DNA of 64,000 nt from Candidatus Latescibacterota bacterium (GCA_965243025.1 CBDETY010000003.1:2144001-2208000); one strand, 5' to 3'. Positions 18,797 to 51,869 are shown, numbered from the stretch's first letter. Notes: generated by a model from the sequence alone, not told the origin. Made by a program: numbers and translations.

Positions 18797-18934
18797 GTTT
18801 CCTCCCTCCAGGTTGTGATTTACTGAAGGTACGGCGACGATTGTTTCACGACCCGGCTTTTTCACCGGGTTTTCTCGACTTTCACGTGTGCACGGGATTG
18901 GCCATTTTGTATCTTTCGTAAGCGAACCGGTCGA

Positions 18935-22792: not shown

Positions 22793-22793
22793 G

Positions 22794-23768: not shown

Positions 23769-23771
23769 CGC

Positions 23772-29365: not shown

Positions 29366-29446
29366 TCGAGGCCCCCTCTGTCACCAGCCCCCGCAGACCG
29401 TCAGATCCGCTACGAACCGGACGAACGGTGCCCGCCGCTCCTGGCC

Positions 29447-31111
29447 ATGCTGGTCGGGGTTCAGGGGATCGTGATCGTGCTCGCGCCCACGGTGTTGATC
29501 GTGGCGGTCACCGTGCTTGCCTCGGGCCAGGGCGAAAGCTTCATGTCCTGGGCGGTCTTCGCGGCCCTCGTCATCGCCGGGGGGGCCACTGCCCTGCAGG
29601 CTGCCAGAATCGGACGGCTGGGCGGAGGCCACCTGCTCATTACGGGAGTCACGCCCAACTTCATCGCCGTCTCGGTCCTGGCCCTGGAGGAGGGCGGCCC
29701 GGCCCTGTTGGCGAGTCTCATGGTCCTTTCCTCGCTCTTCTACCTGGCGGTTGCCGCGTGGCTGCCGCTGCTGCGCCGCATCATCACGCCGGTCGTCTCC
29801 GGCACCGTGCTCATGCTTATCGCCGCCATGGTCCTGCCCATCGCTTTCGACCGGCTGACAGAAGTACCGGAAGGGGCGCCGGCGGCCGCCGGTCCGTTCG
29901 TGGCCGCGGTGACCCTGTTCGTATCGACGATGCTGATGCTGCGCGCTCCCCGGACCTGGCGTCCGTGGTCCCTGCTGATCGGGATCGCCGCAGGCTGCGC
30001 CGCCTCGGCGCCGCTCGGACTGTACGATTTCGAGCGTCTGGCCGCTGCTTCCTGGATCGGAGTTCCCGACAGCGGGTTCCCCGGACTGGACCTGAGGCTT
30101 ACCGCCGGGTTCTGGGCCATGCTGCCGATGTTCCTGATCGTCGTCCTCGTACAGGCGATCAAGAACATCAGCGACGGCATGGTCGCTCAACAGGTGGCGC
30201 GGCCCCGGCCCCGGGCAACCGATTTCCGCCTCATCCAAGGATCGGTCTACGCCAACGGGGCGGGCATCCTGTTGTCGGGCCTGGCCGGGACACCGCCGAC
30301 ATCCTCCTATTCCTCGCTCACCGCCTCGCTCATCCACCTCACCGGGGTCGCCGCCCGCAACGTCGGCTACGCCATGGGAGGCCTTCTCGTGGTGCTCGCC
30401 TTCCTCCCCAAGGTGACCGGCGCCCTGCTCACCATTCCCCCCCCGGTCATGGGGGGCTTCCTGCTGGTCGCCCTGGGCATGTTCTTCGTCGAGGGAATCC
30501 AGACCCTGGCGCGGGCCGGCCTCGACCTGCAACACGCCATCGTCGCCGGACTGGCGTTCTCGATCGGCCTCGGCATGAAGGACCACAACATCCTCGAGGG
30601 CATTCTGGGAAATCCCTGGGGGGCGTTGCTCGGCAACGGCATGACCATGGGCACGGCGACGGCGATGGCGCTGACCGCCTTCCTCGAGCTGACCAGACCG
30701 CGCCGGCGGCGCCTCGAGGTCCGGCTGGATACTTCCGACCTTCCCCGGATCGACGCCTTTCTCCATGAGGTCGCAGCCAGGATGGGTTGGGACCATGGCG
30801 CCGCCGGGCGCCTGCGCTCCGCTGGCGAGGAGACCCTGGCGTGCCTGCTGCAGCCGGGAAACCCGGATCCGGCGGGGCAGGCGCCGCGCCTCGTCATCTC
30901 CGCGCGTCCGGAAGGTGGATCAGTCGAGATGGAGTTCCTGGCGATTTCCGACGAGGAGAACCTCGAAGACCGCCTTGCGTACCTGGACGAACAGACCGAA
31001 ACCGCCGATGGAGAAGAGCTGTCGTTCCGCCTGTTGCGCCACTACGCTTCCTCGGTCCGGCACCAGAAGTACCACGGGCTGGACATCGTTACGGTGCGGG
31101 TGACCCCTTAG
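29447..31111 (+). CDS. NCS2 (xanthine/uracil permease-fold) protein fused to a degenerate RsbW-like GHKL domain, copy 1
   Basis: NCS2 motif RRIITPVVSGTV; C-terminal ~135 aa resembles the RsbW at 18935. Homology to the 50112 paralog extends upstream in frame (IRYEPDERCP), so the start may be CTG 29378. Confidence 0.85.
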   Translation: MLVGVQGIVIVLAPTVLIVAVTVLASGQGESFMSWAVFAALVIAGGATALQAARIGRLGGGHLLITGVTPNFIAVSVLALEEGGPALLASLMVLSSLFYLAVAAWLPLLRRIITPVVSGTVLMLIAAMVLPIAFDRLTEVPEGAPAAAGPFVAAVTLFVSTMLMLRAPRTWRPWSLLIGIAAGCAASAPLGLYDFERLAAASWIGVPDSGFPGLDLRLTAGFWAMLPMFLIVVLVQAIKNISDGMVAQQVARPRPRATDFRLIQGSVYANGAGILLSGLAGTPPTSSYSSLTASLIHLTGVAARNVGYAMGGLLVVLAFLPKVTGALLTIPPPVMGGFLLVALGMFFVEGIQTLARAGLDLQHAIVAGLAFSIGLGMKDHNILEGILGNPWGALLGNGMTMGTATAMALTAFLELTRPRRRRLEVRLDTSDLPRIDAFLHEVAARMGWDHGAAGRLRSAGEETLACLLQPGNPDPAGQAPRLVISARPEGGSVEMEFLAISDEENLEDRLAYLDEQTETADGEELSFRLLRHYASSVRHQKYHGLDIVTVRVTP

Positions 31112-31275
31112 TGTCCTGTCGCAGAAATATGTCGACATCGGGAAGCCGATCCATCCCGGCTCACGGCGTTGCCTTCGCTCCCCGTACACCCTCGGTACGA
31201 CTCGCTCAGGCGCCTTGTGAGCCGGGCGCCTCGGCCTCCCGATTTTGTAAATCTATCTCTGCGACGGGACACCAG
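31108..31275 (+). mobile_element. 168-bp MITE/ERIC-like element, copy 2
   Basis: TAGTGTCCTGTCGCAGAAATA...TATCTCTGCGACGGGACACCAG; its TAG at 31109-31111 is the stop codon of the permease. Confidence 0.8.
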
Positions 31276-31364
31276 CAGCCCGGATCTCGGAAGGGGACAG
31301 CCCCCCAACGTGCCCAAACCTCCGGGCCAGGTCTGCCGGGACAGGCTTTGCGAAAAGTCGCGGG

Positions 31365-32276
31365 TCAGGCAGGAACGTTCTGCTCGAGGAATTCACGCAT
31401 CAAGCCGGCGCATTCCTCGGGTTGTTCCAGTTGCAGAAGGTGCGTCGTCTCGGGCAGGAAATCGTAATTCACCGTCAGGATATGGCTGAGGTCGAGCGTC
31501 GGCAGATAGGAGTATGGAAGGGTGGGATCGGCGCCGATGACCTTGATGGGGCAACCGAAGGTCGCAAAGTCCACCAACACCGCATACGGGGCGGCGTAAT
31601 CCACGATCTGCGCTTCGTACTCGGGCGGACAGCGAAGTTCATACCCCTCGCCGCCCGCACATTCGCGCAGGGTCGTCCTTGCAACCAGGTCGGAAACCCC
31701 GGGAACAACACGCTGGAAGGTTGGTATATAGGGAAGAACATCCGCGAGTTCCTCCCTGGATTTGAACCGACAGGTGCGGCGCCGGGTCATTGCAGCCACA
31801 CGCTCGCTCGCCGCGTCGAATTCCTCGTAGCTGGCGCCGCGCTTGCACAAGGGCGGATCGAACAGGACGCAGGCGGAAAACCCACTGCCCCTGGAAGGGG
31901 ACAAAAGCGCCGTCAGGGCGGCAAGCGAATGGAAAACCCCGATTTTCGGTTTCTTTCCGTAGTGGCGGTCGATTGCCTGAAGAATGAGGTCGTGGTCGCT
32001 GACGAAGGTCGGAACATTGTGCATTTGCACAGGGCCGACGGCGTTCCAACCGTGGTTCCTGAGGTCGTAGACAATCAGGTCGAAGTCCTCGGCAAGCAGC
32101 GACCAGAAGGGATAGTAGAGGTCGATCGCCAGACCGTTGCCGTGGCTCAGAACGAGCCGCTGCCCTTCGGGGTTTCCGTGGCGGCGCAAGGTAATGGCCG
32201 TGTCACCGTCCACCCGGACATCGCAGGTGGAAAGCGGCTCGGGTACATCCCAGACCGGTTCTGGAGTCGAGGTCAA
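31365..32276 (-). CDS. supD: Alpha/beta hydrolase of the sup cluster (candidate release enzyme)
   Basis: Motifs LSHGNG, YDLRNHG, atypical elbow GVFHSLAA and ETTHLLQLEQP. TTG 32276 overlaps the PPTase stop codon (TTGA). Confidence 0.75.
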   Translation of the reverse strand: MTSTPEPVWDVPEPLSTCDVRVDGDTAITLRRHGNPEGQRLVLSHGNGLAIDLYYPFWSLLAEDFDLIVYDLRNHGWNAVGPVQMHNVPTFVSDHDLILQAIDRHYGKKPKIGVFHSLAALTALLSPSRGSGFSACVLFDPPLCKRGASYEEFDAASERVAAMTRRRTCRFKSREELADVLPYIPTFQRVVPGVSDLVARTTLRECAGGEGYELRCPPEYEAQIVDYAAPYAVLVDFATFGCPIKVIGADPTLPYSYLPTLDLSHILTVNYDFLPETTHLLQLEQPEECAGLMREFLEQNVPA

Positions 32277-33007
32277 CGGGAATCCGGATCCAGTTCGCAA
32301 GCGATGGCAGCCGCGAAACTCTCGTTGCCGAGATCTTCCAGCCGCCACCTTACGGCCGGCACCTCAGGGAACCGGAAAATACTCGTCCTCTTTCCGTGGC
32401 GCATGGCCAACGGGATCTCCAATCGGGACATGTCCAGGGAAAGCCCCAGACCCAGCGCCTTGATCAATGCTTCCTTCATGGTCCAGAGATGAAAGAACAA
32501 GTGGAGCTTGCAAGATCCACGCGCCAATGCCAACTCGGCTTGCTCCGCCGGCCCTAGCACCGCACTGATCAGTTCGTCGAGATGACGGCGGGGGCCGCGT
32601 TCCTCCACGTCCACACCCAGCCGTCCCGCCGCCGCCAAAGCGATCAGGCCGTGCTCGCCGCTGTGACTGACGTTGAAGCTGACGGGTGCGGCGGCTCCAT
32701 GTATCAGCGCATACGGTTTTCCGTGCGCCGAGGCGCCGAAACCAAGCTGCTCGTTCCGGCAACCGAGCCTGCCGCAGAGAACGGCGCGGAGCGCCGCCCT
32801 GCATAAAGCGAACCGGCGCCGCGGACCTTCGTGCCGGTATTGTTGCCAACGCGACCGTTCCTGCCCATCGAGCCACCCCGAGGCCTCGGCTTCGCGGGCA
32901 GCATGGGGCGTCAGATCGACGTGCAGTACCGAGGCATCGCCGACTTTCCTGAACGGACGCCACCAGCACTCGGCAACGGAACCAGGCATATGTGCGGCCC
33001 GCCACAT
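32273..33007 (-). CDS. supC: Sfp-type 4'-phosphopantetheinyl transferase
   Basis: Motifs HGKP, FNVSHS, LGVDVE and LWTMKEALIKALGLG. Confidence 0.9.
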   Translation of the reverse strand: MWRAAHMPGSVAECWWRPFRKVGDASVLHVDLTPHAAREAEASGWLDGQERSRWQQYRHEGPRRRFALCRAALRAVLCGRLGCRNEQLGFGASAHGKPYALIHGAAAPVSFNVSHSGEHGLIALAAAGRLGVDVEERGPRRHLDELISAVLGPAEQAELALARGSCKLHLFFHLWTMKEALIKALGLGLSLDMSRLEIPLAMRHGKRTSIFRFPEVPAVRWRLEDLGNESFAAAIACELDPDSR

Positions 33008-33096
33008 GGAAACGGCGGCTTCCCAACCGGCCGTGTCGGCCCGACTGGAAAGCCGCCGATTTCGATCAGCGGACCCCCTTCCTTATCGAAGGCCGT

Positions 33097-33348
33097 TCAG
33101 CCAGCCTGGGAATCGATGAGTTCGACTACTTCCTGCACGCTTTTCAGCTCCGTGCAATGCTGGGCCGTAAACGTGATGTTGAACTCCTGGGAGACCAGTT
33201 TCGCGAAGGCAACGAGATCCGTGGAGGGAACGCCTGACTCCATGAGGCTGAAGTTCAGGTCCTCGGGCAGATCCAACGGCTTGCCATCTACTTCGAGGTT
33301 TTCGCTTATGAGGTTTCTGAGGCGATCTCCGGTCGAGGCCATCTTCAC
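33097..33348 (-). CDS. supB: Free-standing acyl carrier protein
   Basis: 83-aa acidic protein with SLMESGVPSTDL (Ppant Ser in GVPS); lies between the PKS and the PPTase. Confidence 0.8.
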   Translation of the reverse strand: MKMASTGDRLRNLISENLEVDGKPLDLPEDLNFSLMESGVPSTDLVAFAKLVSQEFNITFTAQHCTELKSVQEVVELIDSQAG

Positions 33349-33434
33349 TTTCCTTCCGCAAGGGTGATGGTGGTTTTGGCATGCAGCCGCGAAAGAAATA
33401 AGGACAGGGGGAAAGGCTGGTCAATCGACTGCAT

Positions 33435-36400
33435 TCAACCCCCGGATGCGGTCTGCGCATCGATCCAGTGGCGCCGGCGCTGGAACGGATAGCCCGGAAG
33501 GGAGATCCGGCGCCGGGTCTCTCCGGCGAACAACCCCGAAAAGGAAACCGCGAGCCCCGCTTCGTACGCCCCTGCGACCGCCGACACGAAGGCCTCGTCA
33601 CATTGCGAATCCCGCCTCAGGCTCGACAGCGCAACCGGTGCCCCGGGGCTGCCCCCCGAAGCGTGGGATCCGTTCCCATCGGCTTGGCGGCCATCTCCCG
33701 GCTTCGGCCAGGCCCGGGAAAACATCGGGGCCAGCACCGCATCCGGGCCGATCTCCAGGACGGCCTGCACACCCAGCCCGGCCAGCGTCTCCGCGCATCG
33801 GTCGAAAGCAACCGGCTCCTGCCCCGGCCGTTGCCAGTACCCCCGGTCCAGCCCGTCCGCGTCCAGCACGCGCCCCGTAACACTGCTCACGAAGGGAAGG
33901 GAGGGCGGTGAGATCGCGGTGGCCTCGAGCACCGCTTCCCGGCCGTTCCGGTCCGGGTCGGTCGCACCCCGCACGGCCGCAAGCCGCAGCCCCTCCTCCA
34001 GGCCGAACACCCCCGCTGCCTGCGCTGCCGCAAGCTCCCCGGGACCCTGCCCGACCACCGCGCCCGGCCGAATCCCCAGGCTCGACCAGAGGGCCGCAAG
34101 GGCGCACTCCAGCGCGTAAACGGCAGGCTGAGCCCTCGCCGGGTCCTCCAGGGCGCCCTCCGACCCGGCGCGGCCGAACATCGCGTCCAGCAGAGAAGCG
34201 CCCCGTTCATCCTGCAGTACCGAGTGGCAGCGGTCGAGAACCGCCCGCACCACCGGCTCGCTTTCGTACAGCTCCTGACCCATGCCGGCCCAATGGCAGC
34301 CTTCCCCGGTGAACACGAACGCCGCCTTCGACGCGGCGAGGGGTTGCGGCCGCTCCTCCGCCTCCGCGAGCGCCTCCAGCCCCTCCCGCAGCGACGCGGC
34401 GCCGCGGAAAACCACCGCCGCACGGTGGTCGAAATGGCTGCGCCCCGCGCCCGCGGTCCAGGCCATGTCCGCCAGCACAGTGTCCGCGTCCCCTTCCCCA
34501 TCCCGCTCGTCGAGCCACGACAGGTAGCGCCCCGCCAGCTCCTGCAGCGCCCCTTCCGCTTTCCCGGACAATGGAAGGATGCGCGTCCTGCGCGTCCCTG
34601 ACTCCCCTTCCCCGGGCAGCGGCAGGTCCGCCAGCGGCTCCGGCAGGGAAACGCCTACGGGTAGGGCCGGACCGGAAGCGAGGGACTCCCCATCCGGTCC
34701 GGCGCCGTTCGCTTCTCCGTACCCCTCGACCACGACGTGGGAGTTCGTCCCCGAGATCCCGAAGGCGCTCACCCCGGCGCGCCGCGGCCGTCCGGGATGG
34801 CTCGGCCAGTCGGTCAGGTCCGACACCACCTCCACCGGGAGCCGGTCCCAGTCCAGGTGCGGGTTCGGTTCCTCAAAGTGCAGGTTCCGCGGAATAATCC
34901 CCCGCTTCATCGCCAGCACGGTCTTGATCAGGCTCGCCACCCCGGCAGCCGGCTCCAGGTGTCCGATGTTGGTCTTCACCGAGCCGATCAACAGCGGGCG
35001 GTCCGCTTCGCGTCCCCTGCCGTATACCGCTGCGGCCGCCTGCACCTCGATCGGGTCCCCGAACCCGGACCCGGCCCCGTGCGCTTCGAGGTAGTCCACT
35101 TCCTCCGGGACGACACTACCCCGGGCGAGCGCCTCCTCGATCACCCGTTCCTGCGCCGGGCCGTTCGGCACCGTCGGTCCGGCGGCCGCCCCGTTCTGGT
35201 TGACCGCCGACCCGCGGATCACGCCCCAGATGCGGTCGCCGTCGGCCTCGGCCTCGCTCAACCGCTTCAGGAGGACTACTCCGCAGCCCTCACCCCGCAC
35301 GAAGCCGTCCGCGGCGGCATCGAAAGCCCTGCACCGACCGCTGGCCGACAGCAACCCCAGCTCCGCCATCTCTCTGGTCAGCTCGGGCGACAGGACGGCG
35401 TGCGCTCCTGCGGCCAGGGCCAGGTCCACCTCTCCCTGCCGCAGGGCGGAGACAGCATAATGCACCGCGACCAGCGACGAAGCGCAGTTGAGCTCCACCG
35501 GTATCGTCGGACCCTCCAGACCCAGGGCGAAGGAAACCCGCCCGACCGTCATGCTTGCGGCGGTGCCCAGATAGCTGACGCCGCCTCCGGTCATCAGGTC
35601 GCGGTATTCGCTGGCGGCAATGCCGGCATACAGCCCGGTGCGGCTGCCCCGCAACCGGTCGGGGTCCATCCCCGCATCATCGAGAGCCTGCCAGGTCGTC
35701 TCCAGCATCATCCGCTGCCGCGGATCCATCAGTCGCGCCTCGATCGGGGCGATCCGGAAGAATCTCGAGTCGAACTGTTCGATCCCCTCCACGAACCCGC
35801 CCTGGCGGTAGGCGGCGTACTCGGACGGCAGGTCTTCGGAAAGGTCTTTCCAGGAACCGGAATCACCGCGTCCGTCCGTTACCGCGTCCGCACCCGTTTC
35901 GAGCTGGCGCCAGAAAGCCGCAATATCCGGTGCCCCGGGGAACCTGCAGGCCATGCCCACGATCGCGATGCCGTCCTCTTCCTCCCCCCCCGGCACCGCC
36001 GGCAGGGGCTCCGGCACGGGTTGCGGACGAGGGGCGGGGGCACCGCCGGCCTCGCCGAGTTCCCCGGCCAGGTGACTGGCGAGAGCGGCGATGTCCGGGT
36101 AGTCGAAAACCACGGTGTTGGGGACCACGTACTCCTCGGCAAAGGCGCGGTTCAGGCGGTTCCGCAACTCCACCGCCATGAGCGAATCCATGCCCAGGTC
36201 GAAGAACCCCACTGTGGGCTCCGGGGGGCTCGTCAGCCTCAGCACTGCCTGCACCTCCTGCTGCAGGAAGGAAACGAGCAGTTCCTCGCGTGCCGGGGCC
36301 TCCCGCAGCCGGGACAGCAGGTCCTCCGACGAGGCCGGGGAGTCGGCTTCGTCGGCGGGAACGGACAGCAGGTCCTCAAGGAAGGCGGGACGGTCCTCCA

Positions 36401-39400
36401 CCGCCTCTTCGAACACCGACCAGTCCATCGACATCACCACGGAAGTTGTGGTGTCCTGGCGCACCAGCTGGTCGAATGCCTGCATACCCTGCTCGGGGGT
36501 GAACCAGCGGCCTCCGAGCGCGGTTCGCTGCCGGTCGATCCGGTCCCGTTGTTCGGCGGCTTCGCCGATCTCCGACCACGCTCCCCAGGCGATGGCCTGT
36601 CCGGGAAGCCCCATGGCGCGGCGGTGGCCGGCGAGCTGGTCGAGAAAGGCGTTGGCCGCGGCGTGGTTCGCCTGGCCCGGATTGCCCATGACGCCGACCC
36701 GGCTCGAAAAGAGGATGAAGAGATCCAGATCGCGGTCCTCGGTCGCCCGGTGCAGGTGCCAGGCGCCCAGCACCTTCGGCCAGAGCACCGTTTCGAACCG
36801 CTCCCAACTCTGGTTGGTCAGGGCGCCGTCCGACAGCACGCCCACGCTGTGGACCACTCCGCCGAGCGGCGGCAGCGCCGCATCCACCCTCGCGAGCATT
36901 TCATCTATCGCGGCGGCGTCGGTCACATCGGCGAGCTCCACCTGTACCGTTACGCCCCGCTCCCGCAGGCGGCGGACAGCCTCCTCTGCCTCGGCATCCG
37001 GTGCGCGGCGTCCGTTGAGCACGATCGCCCCGGCTCCGCGGTCTGCGAGCCAGCCGGCCACGGCGCATCCGATCCCGCCCAGGCCGCCGGTCACCAGATA
37101 GGTGCGGTCCTGCCGCAATCGGCCCTGCCGGAGCGGCGGCGGCGTCACGACGATCTTCCCGAGATGCCGGGCCGAGCGCATGAAGCTCAACGCCCCCCCG
37201 GCTTCGGCGAGCGGCCACCTGCTGTGCAGGATCGGTTTCAGCTCTCCCGCCGAAAGGCGCTCCACAACCTGCCGCAGGACTCTTCCCACCCACGCCGGCT
37301 CGGTTTTTTTCAGGACATCCAGCTCGAGGATGGAGTAGGACACATCCGGACGCACCGCCGCCATCTCTTCCTCGCTGAGGATGTCCCGCCTCGCCATCTC
37401 GACGAAGCGGCCGCCCTGCCTGAGGCAGGACAGGCTGGCGTCGATGAAGCCCTCTCCCGTCAGGCTGTTCAGCACCACGTCCACACCCTCGCCGCCGGTG
37501 GCTTCGAGGATCTCCCTTCCGAACGCCGTCTGGCGGCTGTCGAATATCCGCTCCACCCCGAGCGACCGCAGGTACGCCTGCTTGGGGGCGCTCGCGGTGG
37601 CGAAGACCTCAGCTCCCGCCGCCTGAACCAGCTGGATGGCCGCCAGGCCGACGCCGCCGGCGCCGGCGTGAATCAGCACCCGCTCGCCGGCCTCCAGCCC
37701 CGAGAGCTCGAAGGAAAGCGCCGCCGACACGAAAGCGCTCGGAACCGTGGCAAGTCCGGAGACGGAGAATCCGGATGGCGCGGGCGCCACCAGCTCCTCC
37801 CGCGTGACCATTTGCGGCCCGAACGCACCGAACCCCAACCCGACCACATGGTCGCCGACCGCCGCGGTCGACACCTCGGAGCCCACCTCGACGATGTGGC
37901 CGCACATCTCCCTGCCCAGCAGCCCCTCCTCGATGAAACCGAGGGACCGGAACACGTCCCAGAAGTTGAGCCCCGCCGCCTCCACCGCGACGCGAACTTC
38001 CCCGGGCTCGAGGGCGGCCGCCGGCAGCGGGTGGACGTACGGTCTGTCGAACACCCCGGCCGGGTCCGGAGCCAGCACCCAGTCCGGCTCCTCCGGCAGG
38101 GACAGACGCTCGGATTCGGCGCCGGCCCGGACCAGGCGCGCCACCTGACGGCGCCCCGATCTGTAAGCGATGTGGTTTTCCGGGTCGGGATTCAGGAGTT
38201 CGGTGACGAGATCGGCTTCCGGGGCCATCTCCCCGGGGTCCAGATCGATCATCCTCGGCTGCAGGTGGGCGGCTTCCCGTGCCACCGCCTTGCCGAAGCC
38301 CCAGAGCGTTGCCCCGGCGAGCTCACCGCCGCGCTCCCGCTCCAGCACCTGCGCGCCCCGGGTGACCATCCAGAGGCCGTTGGCCGGGACCACGTCGGAG
38401 TCGACGACGGCCTGCACCAGCGCCAGCGCGCTCGCTCCGGCTCGTCTGACGTCCTCCGCCATTTCCCCGGTCGCGGCATGTGCGCCGTGACCGTCCAGTC
38501 CCGCCAGATGCACGACGCCGCTGAGCGGCACGCCGTCCGGCAGACCGGCCAGGAGCGACTGCCACGACTCCCTCCGGTCCATTTCCACGCCGGTCCTGAA
38601 AACGCCGGGGCCGGCCGCTTCGGGCTTCCCGTCTTCCGGCGCTTCGCTGCCCGCCAGCACCACCGTCTGGCTCCGCGCCGCCAGACCGGCGGCCAGCTTC
38701 GCCGCCAGACCCCCCTGGTCCGCCGCCAGGACCCACACGCCGGCGGGCTCTTTCACCTGCGCCGGCCCCCGGGCCACGATAACTCCCTTGTCCGGCGTCC
38801 GGGACGGATCGGACTCGTCCGGTCCGAGAACCTCCGCAGCCTCGAAGCCGGCGTCGCCGAGGGCCTGCCGCCATACCGCCGGGCTCGCCAGGGCGTGGTG
38901 CGGACGGTAGCCGTCGGCGAACCGCCACCAGCCGTCCAGCTGGCCGAAGGTCAGGTCCATCCAGCCCAGGCCGCTGAGGTTCTCCAGCGCGATCAACTGT
39001 CCCGACGGCGCCAGCAGGTCGAGGCAGTGCCCCAAGGTCTCCTCGAGGTACCGCGTCGCGTGCAGCACGTTGGACGCGATCAGCAGGTCGTAGCCGTGGG
39101 AGTCGAAACCCTGGGCGATCGGGTCCTTCTCGATGTCCAGCGGACGGTACTCGATCGCCTTTTCCCCGAACCGCGCCTCCGCTTCGGCAAAGAAACCCGC
39201 GGAGATATCCGTGTACACGTAGTCGAACCTTCCTTCCGGAAGCTCCGGCAGCACCGACGCGGTCGCCGATCCCGTTCCCGCCCCGACCTCGATCACCCTC
39301 AGGCGCCGTCCCTCGGGCAATGCCGCCACCAGCGCCCGCACGGCCTCGGCCAGCATCCGGTTCGCCGCGCGCGCCACCGGTGCCTTCAGGTAGAGATCCG

Positions 39401-43802: not shown

Positions 43803-44278
43803 TTCCGGACTCCTTCAGTCGTGGAAACCGGGCGCTGCCCGGCGCTTTCTTCCATACCTGATTGTACGACAATATCACCTGCGGATGTAACCTGCCGAGC
43901 GGCACAGCCAATCCGTTGCATGTCAAATCCGCCGCCCCTCCCCCGCGGTTTACCGGCATACCTGCGACAAAAACATACCGTGCCGGAATCACATGGTTTA
44001 CCTTTTCTCCCTTCGCGTGAACCTCCGCCGTTTGCTGGTGGCAACCGGGACCCCACACCGCCAGGAGCCAACTATTTCTGCGAACACCTGGAGGCAGACA
44101 TCAGCCCCCGGCGGCATGATTCCGGAAAACCTTCCTCCGGTTCGTACCTTCCCTTCCCCGTCGGACCGATGCAACCCCTTTCCGCAAGGCGACGACTCCT
44201 GCATGCCGAGGGCTTCCCACAACCCCTTCCACCACCTCGTCCGGTGACTTCCGGACCATACAAACCTGGAGCGCCTCG

Positions 44279-45436
44279 ATGGCCAAGATCCTAGTCGTAG
44301 ACGACGAGCCGGACCTGGAGCTGTTGCTGCGGCAGAAATTCCGGCGCCGCACCCGGTCCGGAGAGCTCAGTCTCGTTTTCGCCCAGAACGGCGTCGAGGC
44401 CCTGCAGCAACTCGAGGAACACGACGACGTCGACCTCGTGCTGTCGGACATCAACATGCCCGAAATGGACGGTCTCACTCTCCTGCAGCAGCTCGGCAGT
44501 CTCGACTACGACCTGCGGGCGGTGATGGTCACCGCCTACGGGGACATGAAGAACATCCGCACCGCCATGAACCGGGGGGCTTTCGACTTCGTGACCAAGC
44601 CGATCGACTTCGACGACCTCGAGGCGACGATCGCCAAGACCCTCGAGCACCTCGGGGTGATGCGCGAGGCGCTGCGCTCCCGGGACGAGCTGGTGGCCAT
44701 TCGGCAGGAGCTCGGAGTGGCGGCGCAGATGCAGGAGTCCATTCTCCCCACCGACTTTCCCGAGAACCCGCGCTACGAAATCCACGCATCGATGATCCCC
44801 GCCCGCGAGGTCGGCGGCGATTTCTACGACTTCTTCCGGCTCGAGGACGAACGCATGGGAATCGTGGTGGCGGACGTATCGGGAAAGGGAGTGCCGGCGG
44901 CCCTGTTCATGATGGTGAGCCGGACCCTTATGAAAGGAACCGCGATCGGCGAGAGCAATCCGGCCAGGTGCCTTTGCGAGGTCAACGAGCTGCTGACGGA
45001 GTCGAACGAGGAGTCGATGTTCGTCACCGTGTTCTACACCACCCTCGATCCGGTAACCGGGCGCGTCGAGTTCGCCAACGCCGGGCACAACCTTCCGTTC
45101 GTGATCAAGCCGTCGGGCCAGGTGCGGCAGATCGCCTGCGATCCGGGACTGGTCCTCGGGGTGCTGCCCTCCTTCGAGTTCCCGGGCGGCACGGCCGAGC
45201 TGGCGGCCGGGGACGTGCTCTTCTTCTACACCGACGGCGTCAACGAGGCGATGGACGAGAACGGCGTCGAGTTCGGCGACGAAAGGCTGACCCGGGTTCT
45301 GGCGGAGGCCGCGGGTGCGAGCGCCGCCGAGTTCAGCAGCCGGGTGGTGCAGGCGGTGCAGGACCACGCCGGGGAAGCCCCCCAGTCCGACGACATCACC
45401 TGCATGGCGGTGCGCTACATCGGAGACCCCGCCTAG
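44279..45436 (+). CDS. Response regulator receiver fused to a SpoIIE/PP2C phosphatase (RsbU/RsbP-like)
   Basis: Receiver motifs ILVVDDE, SDINMPEMDG and FVTKP; phosphatase motifs VGGDFYD, ADVSGKG, ANAGH, YTDGVNE and SDDIT. Confidence 0.93.
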   Translation: MAKILVVDDEPDLELLLRQKFRRRTRSGELSLVFAQNGVEALQQLEEHDDVDLVLSDINMPEMDGLTLLQQLGSLDYDLRAVMVTAYGDMKNIRTAMNRGAFDFVTKPIDFDDLEATIAKTLEHLGVMREALRSRDELVAIRQELGVAAQMQESILPTDFPENPRYEIHASMIPAREVGGDFYDFFRLEDERMGIVVADVSGKGVPAALFMMVSRTLMKGTAIGESNPARCLCEVNELLTESNEESMFVTVFYTTLDPVTGRVEFANAGHNLPFVIKPSGQVRQIACDPGLVLGVLPSFEFPGGTAELAAGDVLFFYTDGVNEAMDENGVEFGDERLTRVLAEAAGASAAEFSSRVVQAVQDHAGEAPQSDDITCMAVRYIGDPA

Positions 45437-45484
45437 TGCCTGTTCCATCCATTTCCTTCAACCTGCCTCCGGAACAGGACCCTG

Positions 45485-46735
45485 GTGCCCGCCCGCGGGA
45501 TTCCGCTTGAACTCCGCCGCCTGCCCGCGCGGGCCGGCGAGGCGGCGGGCCGCTTCGCCCTCCTCGCCGCGGCGGCCTCGGGACTGGCCCATGCGGCCGC
45601 TCACGGGGCTCCCCCCGCCGGGGGCGACGGGGTGTTCCCCGACTCGATCCTCTTCGGACAGTCCGCTGCTCTGAGCGGTCCCGCCGGAGAGCTGGGCACG
45701 AACATGAACCTCGGGATCCGCGCGGCTTTCGAGGAGGCGAACCTCTCCGGCGGCATCCACGGCCGTCAGCTCCGGCTGCTCGTCCGGGACGACGGGTACG
45801 AGCCCGAGGCCGCGGTCGCCAACACCAGGGAGCTGATCGCCCTCGGCGTCTTCGGGCTGATCGGCGCCGTCGGCACCCCGACCTCGAACGCCGCCGAGCC
45901 CATAGCCAGCGGCGCCTCGATCCCCTACATCGGGCCCTTCACCGGCGCCGACCTGCTCAGGGGGAACGACCAGCGGTACGTGGTGAACGTGCGCGCCTCC
46001 TACTTCCAGGAGACCGAGGAGATGGTGGAAAGGCTGACCGCGGACCTGGGGTTCCGGCGCATCGCCATCCTCTACCAGGACGACAGCTACGGCAAGGCCG
46101 GCCTGACCGGAGTGCGCCGGGCCCTCGACCGGCGCGGCATGAAGCTGGTTGGAGAATCGACCTACATGCGCAACACCGTCGCCGTCAAACGGGCCCTTCT
46201 CGACCTCCAGGACAGCGACCCGCAAGCGGTCATCATCATCGGCGCCTACCGGCCGGCGGCGCACTTCATCAAGTGGGCCCGGAAGATCGGCCTGGGCGCC
46301 GTCTTCGTGAACATCTCCTTCGTCGGCAGCAACGCCCTGCTCGAGGAGTTGGGCGGGGCCGGCGACGGGGTGGTAGTCACCCAGGTCGTCCCGTTCCCCC
46401 GCGACACCGGCATTCCGGTGGTGGCCCGGTATCAGACCGCCCTCAAAGCGATCGACGCGGCGGCGCAGCCGGGGTTCGTCTCCCTCGAGGGGTACCTGGC
46501 GGGGCGCCTCGCCGTCGATGCCCTGCGAACCTCCACCGCCCCAGCCGGCGGCGGTGAGGCCGGGCGGCCGACGCGTGAGGCTTTCCTGCGAACCCTGGAG
46601 GAGTCCGGTCCGATCGACCTGGGCGGCTTCGAGGTCCGCTACGGCCCCGGGGACAACCAGGGATCCGACCGGGTCTTCCTGACCATGATCCGCGGGGGCG
46701 GTTTCGCCCCGGTTGCACGGCTGTCGTCGAGATGA
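45485..46735 (+). CDS. Periplasmic solute-binding protein (Peripla_BP_6), probable sensor partner
   Basis: Motifs GQSAALSGP, DDGYEP, VGTPT, NVRASY and SLEGYLAG; ATGA overlap with the kinase. Confidence 0.85.
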   Translation: MPARGIPLELRRLPARAGEAAGRFALLAAAASGLAHAAAHGAPPAGGDGVFPDSILFGQSAALSGPAGELGTNMNLGIRAAFEEANLSGGIHGRQLRLLVRDDGYEPEAAVANTRELIALGVFGLIGAVGTPTSNAAEPIASGASIPYIGPFTGADLLRGNDQRYVVNVRASYFQETEEMVERLTADLGFRRIAILYQDDSYGKAGLTGVRRALDRRGMKLVGESTYMRNTVAVKRALLDLQDSDPQAVIIIGAYRPAAHFIKWARKIGLGAVFVNISFVGSNALLEELGGAGDGVVVTQVVPFPRDTGIPVVARYQTALKAIDAAAQPGFVSLEGYLAGRLAVDALRTSTAPAGGGEAGRPTREAFLRTLEESGPIDLGGFEVRYGPGDNQGSDRVFLTMIRGGGFAPVARLSSR

Positions 46736-48966
46736 ACATCTCCGAGCAACGCCTCGAATCGACCTTCGAAAGCGTCCTGGCCCGGGTCCCGGGCCCCCTG
46801 GGAGACCGTCTCCGGAGAGCGACCGGAGGGCGCTTCGGCATCGGCAGCAAGATCGCCCTGGTCCTGGGGGGCGGCGTCGCCCTGACCATCGGGGCCGTCG
46901 TTCTCGCCCTGGGGCTGATGAGGATCGTCAGCACCAGGCAGAGCGAGGTCACCGAGGGGTACATGCCGGCCCTGGTCGCCGCCTTCGAGGTCGCCCGGAG
47001 CAGCTCCGAGCTGGTGCGGGCTTCCCCCCGGCTCCTCGCCGCCGACGATCCCGACGACCTCGGGCTGGTGATGTGGGACGTGGTGCGGGAGGAGGAGACG
47101 CTGCGGAAATGGCTTTCCGAAGTCAGGCGGGCCGAATCGAAGGGAGGCGCCGAAGGGGACATCGGCAGTGCGGTCGTGCCGCTGGCGGACAGCCTGGTGG
47201 AGAGCATCGGCCAGATCCAGGAGTCGGTCCGGCGCAGGATGCAGCACCGGGCCCTGCTGCGAAAGCTCGAAGGGGAGGTCGAGAGCCTCGCCCTCCAGCT
47301 GCAGCTCCTGCTCGAGGAGCTGGTCGACGACCAGCATTTCTTCATGCACACCGGGCTCCGCGATCTTGACGATGACCCCGTTTCCCGGTCACGGAGGATC
47401 TCCAAGGCCGAACTCGATCATTATGCCGGCCTCCTAGATTTCCAGGCTTCCCAGAACGTCACCACCACCTTCATCCAGCAGGCGATGACGGAGAACGACC
47501 CAGAGCTGCTGAGGGCGAACCGGGAAAGGGTGGAGACCGCCATGAGCGACGTGCGCCGGGCCCTCGGCGGGATCAGACCGGCGATCAGGTCCCGGCTCCA
47601 GCCGCAGGTGGAGAAGCTGACCGGCCTCTACGCCGCCCCGGACGGGGCCTTCGAGATCCGCACCCGCGAGCTGGAGGAAATCCGCCGCTCCGAGGATCTC
47701 CTGGCGCGCAACCAGCAGACGACCGCCGACCTCGTGGCCATGGTGGAAGGCCTGGTGAAGGAGGCCGAGGTCTCCACCCAGAACGCCGCCAACCGCTCCC
47801 GCAACCTCGTGCGGCTCGGGTTCTGGTTTCTGCTCGGGGTCACCCTGCTCACCCTCGCCGCCGCCTACCTCGTCTGGAAGTTCTTCGGCAAACGGCTGCT
47901 GGCGAGGCTGGGCAGGCTCTTCGACGCCACCCGGCGCATGTCGAAGGGGGACCTCGAGGTGCAGGTCGAGATCGAAGGGAACGACGAGGTCACCGACATG
48001 GCCGGGGCCCTCGAGGTCTTCCGGCAGCACGCCGTCGAGGTGCAGCGGCTCAACCTCGTCGAGAAGCTCGCCGCGGAAGTCCAGGCCAAGAACGCCGAGC
48101 TCGAGACCACCAACACCGAGCTGGAGACCACCCTCGAAGACCTCAGGCGCACCCAGCAGCAGGTCGTCAGCCAGGAAAAGCTCGCCTCCCTGGGGGCCCT
48201 CACCGCCGGCATCGCCCACGAGATCAGGAACCCCCTGAACTTCGTCAACAACTTCTCCGGCCTTTCCTCCGAGCTGATCGACGAGCTGCGCGAAGAGCTG
48301 AAGGGAGAGGGAGAAGGGGGCGCGGACCAGGAGCTGATCGACGAGATCCTCGACGACCTCGGCGGCAACACGGCCAAGGTCAAGGAGCACGGGGAGCGCG
48401 CCAACCGCATTGTCGAGGGCATGCTTGCCCACTCCCGCGACGAAGCGGGACAGGTGGAATCCGCCGACATCAACCAGCTTCTCGACGAGTACGCCAAGCT
48501 CGCCTACCACGGCCTCAGGGGGACGGATTCGACTTTCAACGTCAACCTGATCCAGGAGTACGACGACGCCGCGGGGAAGGTCGAGGCGGTCACCCGCGAC
48601 CTGAGCCGGGTCTTCCTCAACGTGGTGACGAACGCCTGCCACGCCACCGCCGCCCGCGCCGGCGATTCCGACGGCTCCTACAAGCCGACCGTGTGGCTCA
48701 GGACCGAAGGCAGCGAGGACAGCGTCAGGGTTTCCATCCGCGACAACGGCACCGGGATTCCCCCCGAGATCGTCGAAAGGATCTTCGACCCGTTCTTCAC
48801 CACCAAGTCCGGCACCCAGGGGACCGGGCTCGGACTGTCGATCTCCCACGAGATCGTCCGCGAGCACGGCGGGGAGTTCCAGGTGGAGACCGAAGTGGGC
48901 GAGTTCACCGAGTTCAGGATTCTGCTGCCGAGGAAGGGGCTCCTGTCCGGGGGTCCAGCCTCCTGA
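46732..48966 (+). CDS. Membrane histidine kinase (TorS-like periplasmic helical sensor, HAMP, HisKA, HATPase)
   Basis: Two TM helices; HAMP GNDEVTDMA; H box AHEIRNPL; N box LNVVTNA; DNGTGI, FFTTK and GTGLGLSI. Confidence 0.92.
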   Translation: MNISEQRLESTFESVLARVPGPLGDRLRRATGGRFGIGSKIALVLGGGVALTIGAVVLALGLMRIVSTRQSEVTEGYMPALVAAFEVARSSSELVRASPRLLAADDPDDLGLVMWDVVREEETLRKWLSEVRRAESKGGAEGDIGSAVVPLADSLVESIGQIQESVRRRMQHRALLRKLEGEVESLALQLQLLLEELVDDQHFFMHTGLRDLDDDPVSRSRRISKAELDHYAGLLDFQASQNVTTTFIQQAMTENDPELLRANRERVETAMSDVRRALGGIRPAIRSRLQPQVEKLTGLYAAPDGAFEIRTRELEEIRRSEDLLARNQQTTADLVAMVEGLVKEAEVSTQNAANRSRNLVRLGFWFLLGVTLLTLAAAYLVWKFFGKRLLARLGRLFDATRRMSKGDLEVQVEIEGNDEVTDMAGALEVFRQHAVEVQRLNLVEKLAAEVQAKNAELETTNTELETTLEDLRRTQQQVVSQEKLASLGALTAGIAHEIRNPLNFVNNFSGLSSELIDELREELKGEGEGGADQELIDEILDDLGGNTAKVKEHGERANRIVEGMLAHSRDEAGQVESADINQLLDEYAKLAYHGLRGTDSTFNVNLIQEYDDAAGKVEAVTRDLSRVFLNVVTNACHATAARAGDSDGSYKPTVWLRTEGSEDSVRVSIRDNGTGIPPEIVERIFDPFFTTKSGTQGTGLGLSISHEIVREHGGEFQVETEVGEFTEFRILLPRKGLLSGGPAS

Positions 48967-49202
48967 ACGGCTGCCGGTGCCGTGGGGTGGCGGGGCTTCC
49001 GGGAACCTCCCCCAGGGCCCCGGCCCGGTCACGCCGCCTCCAGTCCACCTTCAACCGGAACCTGTTTTTTTCGTCGAGTCAAACCAGCCTACCGGAACGG
49101 GAGCCGGTGGGACAACAACCGGGCTGACCGAATTTCGCGCCATGGCGGGGAACCATCCCTTCAGAACCCTGAAAACCGGAAACCTGCAACCGCGAGGACA
49201 GT

Positions 49203-49976
49203 ATGAAAAAAGCATGCGCAGCCTGGTTTGCCGCCGTGCTGCTGGGCGTCTCTACCGCGGCTCCCGCCCGGGCCGAGTTCCACCTGCAGTACGGCAAGCT
49301 GCTCAATCCATTCTCGGGGGCGGAGGAACAGACCCTGGTCTTCACCCTGCAGCAAGCCTCGGCATGGAAGTTCGGAGACAGCTTCTTCTTCATCGACCAT
49401 CTCGACGACAGCGGGGACGACGGCTTCAACGACAGGGAGTTCTACGCCGAGTGGTATCCGACCCTGAGCCTGGGCAAGCTGGCAGGCAGGGATTTCCGGC
49501 TGGGCCCGATCGCGGACTTCTCCCTGGTGGCCGGGTTCAACGCCTCAGGCGACGGCAAAGTCGTCAAGTACCTGCCCGGTCTGAGAGCTTCCTGGAACCT
49601 GCCGGGGTTCCTGTTCCTGAATACGGACCTGACCGCCTACCTGGACGGCAACACCGGCATCTCCGGCGGGGGGCCTCCGGCAACCGGCAACAGCTTCCTG
49701 TTCGACGTCAGCTGGGTCTTTCCCTTCGAGGCGGGAAGCCAGTTGTTTGCCATCGCCGGTCATGCCGAGTACATCGGTGGCAGCACCGACGAGCTGGGAG
49801 GAGATGTCAGCTCGTGGATTCTCGCCCAGCCGCAGTTCACCTGGGACCTGGGCAACGCGATATGGGGATCACCCCACCGGATCCTGGCGGGTATCGAGTA
49901 CCAGTACTGGCTCAACAAGCTGGGAACCGACCTCGACGAGAGCGCGGCGCAACTGCTGCTGGTCTGGCGACCCTGA
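49203..49976 (+). CDS. Tsx-like (nucleoside-channel family) outer-membrane protein
   Basis: Signal peptide; motifs TLQQASAWKFGDSFFFID, FYAEWYP.LSL, QPQFTWD and GIEYQYWLNKLG. Confidence 0.75.
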   Translation: MKKACAAWFAAVLLGVSTAAPARAEFHLQYGKLLNPFSGAEEQTLVFTLQQASAWKFGDSFFFIDHLDDSGDDGFNDREFYAEWYPTLSLGKLAGRDFRLGPIADFSLVAGFNASGDGKVVKYLPGLRASWNLPGFLFLNTDLTAYLDGNTGISGGGPPATGNSFLFDVSWVFPFEAGSQLFAIAGHAEYIGGSTDELGGDVSSWILAQPQFTWDLGNAIWGSPHRILAGIEYQYWLNKLGTDLDESAAQLLLVWRP

Positions 49977-50031
49977 AGGGCGCGCGCAGGCGGAGACAGC
50001 CAACCCCGGGAGGAATCACAATGAACCCAGG

Positions 50032-50059
50032 TTAACGGACAAACTTCAAAATTTATAAT
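50032..50059 (+). promoter_or_regulatory. Putative sigma70-type promoter for NCS2 fusion copy 2
   Basis: TTAACG-16 nt-TATAAT within an AT-rich patch in otherwise high-GC DNA. Confidence 0.45.
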
Positions 50060-50111
50060 AAATCAAACTCGATTCAGGACGCATAACCCACTGCAAATCA
50101 ACTAATTGAAC

Positions 50112-51869
50112 ATGACAAAAGAAAAGGGATCTATCCGCTTCGAGCCGGAGGAGCACCCTCCCCACTCCGTCGCCCTGGGGGCTGGTTTTCAGGCGGCGGT
50201 CGTGGTCCTGGCGCCCGTGGTGCTCAGCGCCGTGATCATTGCCCGGGCGGCCGGCCAGCCCGCCGGCTACCTGACCTGGGTCGCCTTCGCCGCCCTGCTG
50301 ATCAGCGGCGTGACCACTGTGCTGCAGGCGGTCCGGGTCGGGCGCATCGGGGCCGGGCACGTGCTCATCATGGGGACCTCGGGGGCCTTCATCGCCGTCT
50401 GCATCACGGCGCTGGTGAAGGGGGGACCCTCCCTGATGGCGAGCCTTATCGTCGTTTCGGCGCTGTTTCAGTTCCTCCTGGCGGCGCGGCTGTCGCTGGT
50501 CCGCCGTATCATCACGCCGGTCGTCTCCGGCACGGTGATCATGCTGATCGCCGTCACCGTCATGCCGGTCGTGTTCGATCTGCTCGCGCAGGTACCCGAG
50601 GGCACGCCTTCCTCTGCAGCTCCGGCCGCGGCCGCCGCCACCCTCGCCGCCCTCGCGGCCCTGGCGTTGCGCGCCCCCGTGGCCTGGAGGCTCTGGGCCC
50701 CGCTCATCGCCATCGCCGTCGGCTGCGCCGTCTCGGCCCTTTTCGGCCTCTACGACATTCAACCGGTATTCGAAGCCCCCTGGATCGGTCTTCCCCAATA
50801 CTCATGGCCGGGCCTGGACCTGTCGTTCAGCCCTGAGTTCTGGGCGCTGCTGCCGGCCTTCGTGGTCGTCACCCTGGTGGGTGCGATCGAGACCATCGGC
50901 GACGGCGTCGCCATTCAACGGGTCTCGCGGAGCCGTCCGCGGGCTACCGATTTCCGCCTCGTCCAGGGCGCCCTCAACGCCGACGGGGTGGGCAACCTGC
51001 TCTCCGGCCTCATCGGGACGCCCCCGAACACGACCTACTCGACCAGCATATCCCTCGCCGAGCTGACAGGGGTCGCGGCGCGCCGCGTCGGCGTGTACAT
51101 CGGCGTCATCTTCGTGCTTCTTGCCCTGTCGCCGAAGGTGACCGCCCTGATCATCGCCATTCCCAACCCGGTCGGCGCCGCCTATGTAACCCTGCTTATC
51201 GGCATCCTGTTCGTTCAGGGCATGAAGATCGTCGTCGGAGACGGCCTCGATCACCGCAAGGCGGCGGTGGTCGGCCTGTCGTTCTGGATCGGCGTCGGCT
51301 TCCAGAACCAGGTGATCTTCGCCGACCTGCTCGGCGGGACCTGGGGAACCCTGCTGGGAAACGGCATGACCGCCGGGGGTATGGCGGCGATCGCTCTTAC
51401 CGTCTTCATGGAGCTGACCGCTCCCCGAAGCAGGCGGCTGAAGGTCGACCTGGCCGGCTCGGCGCTGCGGGAGATCGACGCCTTCCTGCACGCCTTCGCC
51501 GCCGGGGCCGGCTGGAAGCAGCGGTCCGGGGAGCGGCTGCGTTCCGCCGGAGAGGAAACCCTGGCGGTCCTGCTGCAGCAGTTCGAGGAGGAAGGGGCCG
51601 AACCCCAGGAGGGAAGCCTGGTCGTCACCGCCCGCCTTTCGGAGAAGGGAGTGGAGCTCGATTTCCTGGCCGCCTCGGGGGTCGAGAACCTCGAGGACCG
51701 GCTCGCCTGCTTGAGCGAGCAGCCAGAGCTGGTCGACGAGCACGAGATCTCCTACCGCCTGCTGCGCCACTACGCCTCCTCGGTGCGGCACCAGAAATAC
51801 CACGACGTCGACATCGTCTCGGTGCTGGTCGAGGAGGCGGCGGAGTCCGCCCCGGATCAGGGCGAATAA
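50112..51869 (+). CDS. NCS2-fold permease fused to a degenerate RsbW-like GHKL domain, copy 2
   Basis: Full-length paralog of 29447-31111, sharing RRIITPVVSGTV, ATDFRL.QG, RLRSAGEETLA and RLLRHYASSVRHQKYH. Confidence 0.88.
   Translation: MTKEKGSIRFEPEEHPPHSVALGAGFQAAVVVLAPVVLSAVIIARAAGQPAGYLTWVAFAALLISGVTTVLQAVRVGRIGAGHVLIMGTSGAFIAVCITALVKGGPSLMASLIVVSALFQFLLAARLSLVRRIITPVVSGTVIMLIAVTVMPVVFDLLAQVPEGTPSSAAPAAAAATLAALAALALRAPVAWRLWAPLIAIAVGCAVSALFGLYDIQPVFEAPWIGLPQYSWPGLDLSFSPEFWALLPAFVVVTLVGAIETIGDGVAIQRVSRSRPRATDFRLVQGALNADGVGNLLSGLIGTPPNTTYSTSISLAELTGVAARRVGVYIGVIFVLLALSPKVTALIIAIPNPVGAAYVTLLIGILFVQGMKIVVGDGLDHRKAAVVGLSFWIGVGFQNQVIFADLLGGTWGTLLGNGMTAGGMAAIALTVFMELTAPRSRRLKVDLAGSALREIDAFLHAFAAGAGWKQRSGERLRSAGEETLAVLLQQFEEEGAEPQEGSLVVTARLSEKGVELDFLAASGVENLEDRLACLSEQPELVDEHEISYRLLRHYASSVRHQKYHDVDIVSVLVEEAAESAPDQGE

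Follow-up and report, generated by a model that had tools for sequence, protein, structure and literature searches.

We have examined a 64,000-nucleotide (nt) stretch of DNA from a Candidatus Latescibacterota bacterium (GCA_965243025.1, CBDETY010000003.1:2144001-2208000; guanine-plus-cytosine [GC] content 67%), referred to here as the window and numbered from its first letter, in which 2 genes, copy 1 and copy 2, encode permeases with an unusual C-terminal extension. Each gene encodes a secondary transporter with 14 helices and the NCS2/NAT (7+7) fold, which ends in a cytoplasmic domain of ~135 amino acids (aa). This domain, hereafter the tail, is modelled as a Bergerat alpha/beta sandwich of the RsbW/SpoIIAB branch and, judged by its motifs, is a pseudokinase. 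We hold the architecture, the tail fold and the motif loss, taken together, with high confidence, and the joining of an NCS2 permease to an RsbW-like tail is a new domain architecture made of 2 known kinds.

Both genes, which a first-pass annotation made from the sequence alone had described as fused ORFs, are present on the + strand. As called from its ATG, copy 1 is an open reading frame (ORF) of 554 aa at 29447..31111, and copy 2 is an ORF of 587 aa at 50106..51869 that opens with a TTG, the next ATG, at 50112, being the start given in that annotation. The codon-position GC pattern of both ORFs is that of real genes, and the 2 proteins are 55% identical over 529 residues, tail included. Copy 1 more likely starts at CTG 29378, which would give a 577-aa protein from 29378-31111, because the conserved N-terminal family motif IRYEPDERCPP is encoded in frame to the 5' side of ATG 29447, after the TAG at 29363-29365, and because CTG 29378 falls in line with the start codons (TTG or ATG) of three homologues of 577 aa. 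The start is apparently non-standard, with the N-terminal motif preceding the first ATG/GTG/TTG, and standard ORF callers would cut 23 residues from the protein.

A Pfam scan of both proteins returned Xan_ur_permease (PF00860) alone (1.4e-35 for copy 1, 3.7e-50 for copy 2), the match spanning roughly the first 380-400 residues of each, and in both proteins the tail is left unannotated by Pfam and NCBIfam. The full-length AlphaFold model of copy 2 (pLDDT 84.3, pTM 0.76; 67-row alignment) had ~3 residues between the helix of transmembrane segment (TM) 14, at 420-438, and strand beta1 of the tail, at 442-448, so that the tail would be kept near the inner face of the gate domain. Contigs corresponding to 50060-50541 (483 nt, 16 differences) and 51495-51784 (290 nt, 11 differences) occurred in a single run deposited as a sponge metatranscriptome, and may stem from DNA carry-over. 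A sigma-70-like site at 50032-50059 (TTAACG, 16-nt spacer, TATAAT), ~50 bp to the 5' side of copy 2, was not significant (1 in 8.3 kb, against 0.6 expected by shuffling).

The tails of copies 1 and 2 are 59% identical, and the motifs RLRSAGEETLA, ENLEDRLA and RLLRHYASSVRHQKYH, pointed out earlier as conserved between them, are identical. The earlier by-eye match of the tails with the RsbW encoded in the window could be reproduced by BLASTP against that protein (18935-19420), which gave E 0.02 in the same register, and by hhalign of 73 tails against 37 RsbW homologues, which gave E 0.007 at a probability of 5.5%. The relaxed hhalign alignment was collinear across 141 columns and included the second pairing seen by eye, that of SYRLLRHYASSVRHQ with GIHLTKAFVHTLSYE; in global mode, the same comparison of tails with RsbW homologues gave no match. 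The NCBIfam model RsbA_anti_sig matched residues 421-545 of copy 1 at E 0.045 and, weakly, 16 of the 73 tails. HATPase_c_2 was the commonest Pfam family among these tails (11/73, also weak, best E 0.008), and neither window protein reached the PF13581 gathering score. A search of PDB-chain sequences with a single tail gave no match at E <= 10. With the tail profile, the lone match among PDB chains was coclaurine N-methyltransferase, which at E 0.64 is at chance level and was rejected. The signal for RsbW likeness in sequence comparisons is weak on its own, and it was made firm by fold searches.

The AlphaFold model of the copy 2 tail (P0002; pLDDT 75.5, pTM 0.71) has the element order beta1, alpha1, alpha2, beta2, beta3, alpha3, a disordered lid remnant, alpha4, beta4 and beta5. 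When this model was compared with PDB by Foldseek, 19 matches were obtained at E <= 0.001, those listed being anti-sigma kinases, with Mycobacterium tuberculosis UsfX (4.4e-7), Bacillus subtilis RsbW (1.5e-6) and SpoIIAB (1.5e-5) at the top. VIA-align, which is independent of Foldseek, gave Z >= 8 for 6 of 48,161 chains, namely UsfX (14.8), the RsbW domain of Rv1364c (14.5), RsbW (14.0), SpoIIAB (13.5), SiaB (11.8) and LvrC (9.9); histidine-kinase CA domains came next, at Z 6.6 or below. In the ESM Atlas, where the comparison was made with the 66% identical homologue P0026, HATPase_c_2 proteins occupied 8 of 10 structure rows (TM-score 0.75-0.81). By these 3 methods, the Bergerat fold suspected in the first-pass annotation proved to be of the RsbW/SpoIIAB type.

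RsbW-type kinases bind ATP through motifs named the N-box Asn, the G1 DxG and the G2 GxG, and the 2 window tails had been said to lack them. The loss holds family-wide. With the 3 sets of columns placed from the RsbW alignment, the N-box Asn was found in only 4 of the 73 tails (Ser in 39, Ile in 18, Val in 8), as against all 37 true RsbW homologues (E..TN); the DxG after beta3 in 0/73 as against 37/37; and the GxG/GG between alpha3 and alpha4 in 3/73 as against 37/37 (GG.G). Tails from different phyla are nevertheless 46-81% identical to that of copy 2, and 14 columns are invariant: W36, E49, E50, N94, S115, R117, L119, S125-V-R-H-Q129, H132 and V141. In the P0002 model these residues sit largely on elements that frame the former ATP site, a face that would still be under selection by a partner, a ligand or the transporter itself.

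The transmembrane part was examined in the same way. Foldseek with the full-length copy 2 model ranked UapA (E 6.2e-17, TMt 0.80), UraA (E 1.4e-15, TMt 0.86-0.87) and SVCT1 ahead of SLC26 members, which appeared from rank 14 and included SLC26Dg; from this ranking the permease fold would be NCS2, with the kinship to SulP/SLC26 that the first-pass annotation had invoked still visible, and its image of a mirror-image SulP-STAS design is apt. Three motifs define the NAT family, among them Gln-His in TMS1, according to PMC5972032. We compared the motif columns with UapA and then across 67 family members, and the substitutions claimed earlier for the 2 copies (loss of the TM1 His, a changed TM10 signature and a Lys in TM8 of copy 1) were borne out in both comparisons. 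In TM1 the Gln is present in 67/67, and the residue that follows is Ala in 50, Gly in 15, Thr in 1 and His in 0 of 67, the pair reading Q-A in copy 2 and Q-G in copy 1. The TM10 signature position reads TTYSTSISLAELTG in copy 2 and SSYSSLTASLIHLTG in copy 1, and [S/T]-S-[I/V]-S-L-A-E-[V/L]-T-G across the family, so that only Thr-Gly remains of the NAT signature. TM8 reads ETIGD in copy 2 and KNISD in copy 1; copy 2 belongs to the 52/67 members with Glu and copy 1 to the 15/67 with Lys, and the TM8 Asp is present in 67/67.

Both proteins also missed the NCBIfam cut-offs for pbuX (414.15 bits; 165.8 for copy 1 and 211.6 for copy 2) and ncs2 (291.8 bits; 152.7 and 187.5, respectively), all scores being less than about two-thirds of the respective cut-off. 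As nucleobase carriers, both permeases are non-canonical by their motifs and scores. For copy 2, the Tsx-like porin encoded upstream is a hint of a solute resembling a nucleoside or nucleobase, and the TM8 Glu-to-Lys change of copy 1, together with its neighbourhood of polyketide synthase (PKS) genes of the sup type, hints at a different, possibly anionic, one.

The family is large. Of 8000 candidates scored in a word-indexed search, 1528 proteins reached E <= 0.001; the 120 matches listed all had PF00860 only, and most were of 575-590 aa. Profile searching, carried out exhaustively over 1.84 billion representatives, gave 647 clusters (50% identity), 411 of them at E <= 1e-10, and in the full-length cluster members listed (about 540-600 aa) the domain was C-terminal. 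Nine short or oddly placed matches from the profile search had no Pfam family at E <= 0.001 and are probably fragments, so that they give no evidence of other architectures of the tail. Existing names, among the matches listed, were 'hypothetical protein' or a generic permease, and ten divergent cluster representatives, from metagenome-assembled genomes (MAGs) of Acidobacteriota, were named 'hypothetical protein' only. Among species-representative genomes, 269 of 323 pattern matches were confirmed. The best 80 of the 269 were all from MAGs, of Chloroflexota/Dehalococcoidia, Latescibacterota, Gemmatimonadota, Verrucomicrobiota, Acidobacteriota and Actinomycetota; the family is thus conserved in no fewer than six phyla, made up here of uncultured bacteria of which many are sponge-associated. 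Among the sequencing runs that contained the window were rows labelled sponge metagenome (six, from five studies), coral metagenome (one) and marine metagenome (one). This 6.8-Mb genome has four tail-bearing permeases among 5 PF00860 genes, the fifth being an AzgA-like ORF of 482 aa without a tail.

A quick maximum-likelihood tree (67 full-length members; support by SH-aLRT; rooted at the midpoint for drawing only), from which rows outside 540-640 aa were left out, including the sup-linked loci L060, L073 and L081, contained a sup-linked clade of 10 sup-linked rows, copy 1 among them, plus L018, from five phyla, and a Tsx-linked clade in which 13 rows, one of them copy 2, are joined by L019. 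The rows outside both clades were nearly all from Chloroflexota, with one from Actinomycetota.

We then considered whether the tails are linked to genes of partner switching, here STAS, RsbW and PP2C. The genome has a single RsbW, a single stand-alone STAS and a single strong SpoIIE, and all three lie in the window (Table 1), about 33 kb or less from two of the genome's four tail-bearing permeases; a genome scan for STAS gave 3 matches, these being the stand-alone STAS, a SulP-STAS and a weak one. The best 80 homologous loci were searched by tblastn with the window proteins, over 8 kb for partner-switch and SulP genes. Partner-switch genes were found at 7 of the 80, in four arrangements and four phyla: L005-L007 have a response regulator fused to PP2C (RR-PP2C); L019 has STAS, RR-PP2C and RsbW; L025 has RsbW, RR-PP2C, a periplasmic binding protein (PBP) and a histidine kinase (HK); and L063 and L081 have a STAS and a 90-aa ORF. 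Two further loci had weak PP2C matches only (31% identity), and hidden Markov models built locally from the STAS and RsbW alignments found no loci beyond those of tblastn. Orthologues of the SulP-STAS protein (66-73% identical) occurred within 8 kb of a family member at 7/80 loci, and the third tail-bearing paralog of the genome (585 aa; G000:C3:4881286-4884801, L100:7287-10802) is convergent with a SulP-STAS transporter gene, 142 bp away. The pair sits inside an ABC-transporter gene set.

In complex prediction, the tail with STAS gave an ipSAE of 0.60 (runs of 0.66, 0.54 and 0.60, with at least 90% contact agreement and a partner pLDDT of 90), the best of 3 controls giving 0.00. This lends weak support: the ipSAE mark is reached by 58/80 solved complexes and 2/110 mismatched pairs, and those that reach it at 0.60 or under are 7 of the 80 solved complexes and both of the passing mismatches. 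Linkage to STAS and PP2C genes, a condition that the first-pass annotation set for its reading, is present, but at a minority of loci.

The reading that we favour, tentatively and at somewhat less than an even chance, is that the tail is an ATP-independent regulatory docking module, most plausibly for STAS, which would place the permease under an RsbW/PP2C switch fed by a PBP-HK sensor; this we infer. The tail would have lost ATP use and kept the ancestral docking role, and it would serve as a regulatory module against the gate domain, as STAS does in SulP/SLC26. Its likeliest partner would be an unphosphorylated STAS domain, either the single stand-alone STAS of the genome or that of a neighbouring SulP. 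Whether STAS is phosphorylated would depend on the one RsbW kinase and on the receiver-PP2C phosphatase that acts downstream of the PBP/HK sensor, and docking of STAS on the tail would gate the elevator movement of the permease, which would be the output of the partner switch and not a sensor. It is unlikely, although conceivable, that these parts form a sigma-less partner-switching circuit in which one STAS shuttles between the sole true RsbW and the tails of four permeases, the SulP STAS perhaps acting likewise in trans. If so, a periplasmic signal would, via PBP, HK and receiver-PP2C, toggle a set of 7+7-fold transporters post-translationally, and one of these transporters would be the SupE-type permease that is linked to the sponge-specific sup lipid/PKS pathway.

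Several observations weigh against the docking model. The clustering of partner-switch genes inside the window is a single observation, and at 73 of the 80 loci no relative of STAS, RsbW or PP2C was present within 8 kb. The neighbouring proteins of 75 loci, taken up to 3 genes out on each side, numbered 406; their 261 cluster representatives, scanned with Pfam, yielded a single stand-alone STAS and a single RR-PP2C, with HATPase_c_2 absent. The neighbourhoods were otherwise heterogeneous, with no systematic partner. The tail-STAS score lies in a weak band and may reflect memory of the RsbW-RsbV and SpoIIAB-SpoIIAA complexes, whose structures have been solved. The lid of SpoIIAB makes much of the STAS contact, and in the tails the lid region is shortened, residues 105-113 being modelled at pLDDT < 50. 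The missing motifs are no proof of lost nucleotide binding.

Of the other explanations, the nearest to the docking model in probability, somewhat unlikely in our estimation, is that the tail is a self-contained dimerisation or autoregulatory domain that has no external partner and clamps two gate domains together or plugs the inward-facing cavity, like SLC26 STAS dimers. The 3-residue tether to TM14 would suit such a role, the fold comes from an obligately dimeric family (SpoIIAB is an obligate dimer), NCS2 carriers work as dimers, most loci have no partner-switch genes nearby, and the SLC26-STAS analogy rests on a related transmembrane fold. However, both the invariant polar/basic cluster on the former ATP-site elements and the recurring STAS neighbours would be left unexplained. 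The tail could also be an allosteric metabolite sensor for the permease, its degenerate pocket taking up a small ligand such as a nucleotide, a nucleobase, a second messenger or a lipid head group. Suggestive of such a role are E49, E50, N94, E96/D97, S115, R117, R127, H128, K130 and H132, which lie on alpha2, the post-beta3 turn, alpha4 and beta4 and frame the GHKL pocket; since the adenine-binding Asp and both glycine boxes are lost, we consider this quite unlikely.

The permease could itself be the sensor, as the first-pass annotation read it, in the form of a true transceptor or membrane-anchored anti-sigma factor whose tail holds a sigma factor or STAS and frees it upon substrate transport. 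The nearest structures are indeed of anti-sigma factors complexed with sigma F or with antagonists, and UsfX has been reported as a non-phosphorylating anti-sigma factor. Yet the SigB/F/G model cut-off of 234 bits was reached by none of the sigma factors of the genome (121 bits at best), the window has no adjacent sigma gene, the paralogs number four per genome and occur in very diverse contexts, and the nearby PBP-HK pair is already a sensor, all of which makes the proposal decidedly improbable. The dimerisation, ligand and transceptor explanations are compatible with docking. An ordinary xanthine/uracil permease with a functionless extension would agree with the Pfam and NCBIfam names, Xan_ur_permease or pbuX-like, but hardly with scores so far under the pbuX and ncs2 cut-offs, with the failure of two of three NAT motifs, or with a tail conserved to the above extent across phyla, invariant columns included; we regard it as very improbable indeed.

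The genes around the 2 permeases are listed in Table 1. The receiver-PP2C gene heads a same-strand run that ends in copy 2, and at L005-L007 the Tsx-like gene is likewise preceded by RR-PP2C, PBP and HK. The protein encoded directly upstream of copy 2 matched Channel_Tsx at E 0.0045, below the cut-off, over 180/244 profile positions. A Tsx-like gene lies directly upstream of the permease at 13/80 loci, in phyla all expected to have an outer membrane.

Table 1. Positions of the permeases, their tails and other genes in the window
Feature	Position	Strand	Basis
Copy 1, non-canonical NCS2 permease with RsbW-like tail, SupE-like clade; probable start	29378..31111	+	ORF, Pfam Xan_ur_permease, homologue start alignment, tree, TM8 Lys
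Copy 1 C-terminal domain (P0001), 142 aa, degenerate RsbW/HATPase_c_2-like	30683..31108	+	59% identity to copy 2 tail, RsbA_anti_sig, BLASTP
Copy 2, non-canonical NCS2 permease with RsbW-like tail, 587 aa, Tsx-linked clade	50106..51869	+	ORF, Pfam, full-length model
Copy 2 C-terminal domain (P0002), 153 aa	51408..51866	+	AlphaFold model, Foldseek, VIA-align
RsbW-type kinase, canonical HATPase_c_2	18935..19420	+	Pfam 6e-22; only one in 6.8-Mb genome
Stand-alone STAS, anti-anti-sigma type	19417..19752	+	Pfam 1.6e-20; only one in genome
Response-regulator receiver fused to PP2C (SpoIIE) phosphatase	44279..45436	+	SpoIIE 2.3e-53, Response_reg 2e-26; only strong SpoIIE in genome
Periplasmic binding protein, Peripla_BP_6	45485..46735	+	Pfam; relatives near permease at 18/80 loci
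HAMP histidine kinase	46732..48966	+	Pfam; relatives near permease at 9/80 loci
Tsx-like outer-membrane channel candidate, 257 aa, signal peptide	49203..49976	+	Weak Channel_Tsx match; next to copy 2
Sup-type cluster convergent with copy 1	31365..43802	-	Pfam, ORF list
Alpha/beta hydrolase of sup-type cluster	31365-32348	-	
Phosphopantetheinyl transferase (PPTase) of sup-type cluster	32273-33007	-	
83-aa ORF like acyl carrier protein (ACP), between PPTase and PKS	33097-33348	-	
3455-aa PKS, KS-AT-DH-MT-ER-KR-ACP-KS-AT	33435-43802	-	

At 12/80 loci, in 5 phyla, the permease is convergent with a hydrolase-PPTase-PKS cluster, as copy 1 is in the window. The neighbours in this sup context are 53-82% identical across phyla, which suggests that the sup block moves horizontally as a whole. 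The first-pass annotation had mentioned a permease beside sup clusters, and this agrees with the sup-linked clade of our tree and with the fosmid table of PMC3908369, which lists a SupE-like permease of 557 aa flanked by two STAS (anti-anti-sigma) genes beside the swf PKS. At L063:5524-6210 and L081:6098-6783, a STAS and a conserved 90-aa ORF with no Pfam family lie directly upstream of sup-clade permeases, an arrangement that resembles ORF18/ORF19 of that table. The equivalent of the 83-aa ACP-like ORF in L044 (10280-10558) matched PP-binding at 9.7e-10.

Elsewhere in the window, a 500-aa Amidohydro_2 ORF on the - strand overlaps the RsbW ORF by ~470 bp (17900-19420), and its amidohydrolase domain starts at residue 207. 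Probably both ORF calls are too long at the 5' end; RsbW homologues are of 147 aa, and the true start of the window RsbW is probably about 14 codons later. The RsbW-STAS-Amt genes are followed at 21359-24758 by a set comprising a circularly permuted ATP-grasp, Alpha-E and a transglutaminase, which is syntenic in L060. Eukaryote-like proteins with leucine-rich, cadherin and fibronectin-III repeats are encoded beside the homologous loci L043, L056, L051 and L017.

The first-pass annotation knew of no description of the appended domain, and we found none of an NCS2-RsbW-like fusion in the full-text literature searched, which did not take in the original SupE paper, so that an earlier remark is possible. 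To our knowledge, the NCS2/NAT family is usually described without a folded regulatory domain. The fusion gives this family one, and of the kind that is the natural partner type of the STAS found in the sister SulP/SLC26 family. It also defines a large unannotated non-canonical NAT branch, with 647 clusters, four copies per genome and at least six phyla, present in runs labelled sponge metagenome among others, and supplies something testable about the 'SupE permease' of sup clusters, which has long gone unexplained. Docking of STAS by the tail, if it occurs, would exemplify direct control of transport by partner switching.

Compared with canonical NAT/NCS2 transporters (UapA, UraA, XanQ, SVCT1), the family shares PF00860, the 14-TM 7+7 fold, the TM1 Gln, the TM8 Asp and the TM10 Thr-Gly, but differs from them in having no TM1 His, in a TM10 without Gln/Glu-Asn or Gly, in a TM8 Lys in 15/67 members and in the folded C-terminal domain of ~135 aa, the best-matching solved NCS2 chains aligning in the transmembrane part only. 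The SulP/SLC26-STAS transporters (SLC26Dg, BicA, DauA/YchM) have a related 7+7 fold with a cytoplasmic domain after the last helix, and SulP-STAS genes are recurrent neighbours of the family; the STAS of Escherichia coli DauA/YchM binds ACP. In contrast to these, the appended domain here is RsbW-like, the type of STAS's partner and not STAS itself, and the transmembrane part is nearer to NCS2. Pfam found PF00860 only, and neither Sulfate_transp (PF00916) nor a C-terminal STAS, in the window proteins, and the likeness to SulP is one of analogy.

With RsbW/SpoIIAB/UsfX (HATPase_c_2) the tails share the fold and the element order, at Z 13.5-14.8, as well as a conserved Glu in the N-box helix, and they differ in the absence of the N-box Asn, DxG and GxG, in a shortened lid, in fusion to a transporter and in falling below the Pfam cut-off. 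Copy 1 resembles SupE (ABE03914) in that it is convergent with a hydrolase-PPTase-PKS cluster and shares its clade with 9 other sup-linked permeases, a likeness to SupE that is by position only. MATE efflux transporters in ESM Atlas clusters from Bacillota have an unrelated transporter fold, but carry a C-terminal HATPase_c_2-like domain that matches the tail at a TM-score of 0.75-0.77, 31% of one cluster having PF13581. These clusters represent a second class of transporter fused to an RsbW-like domain.

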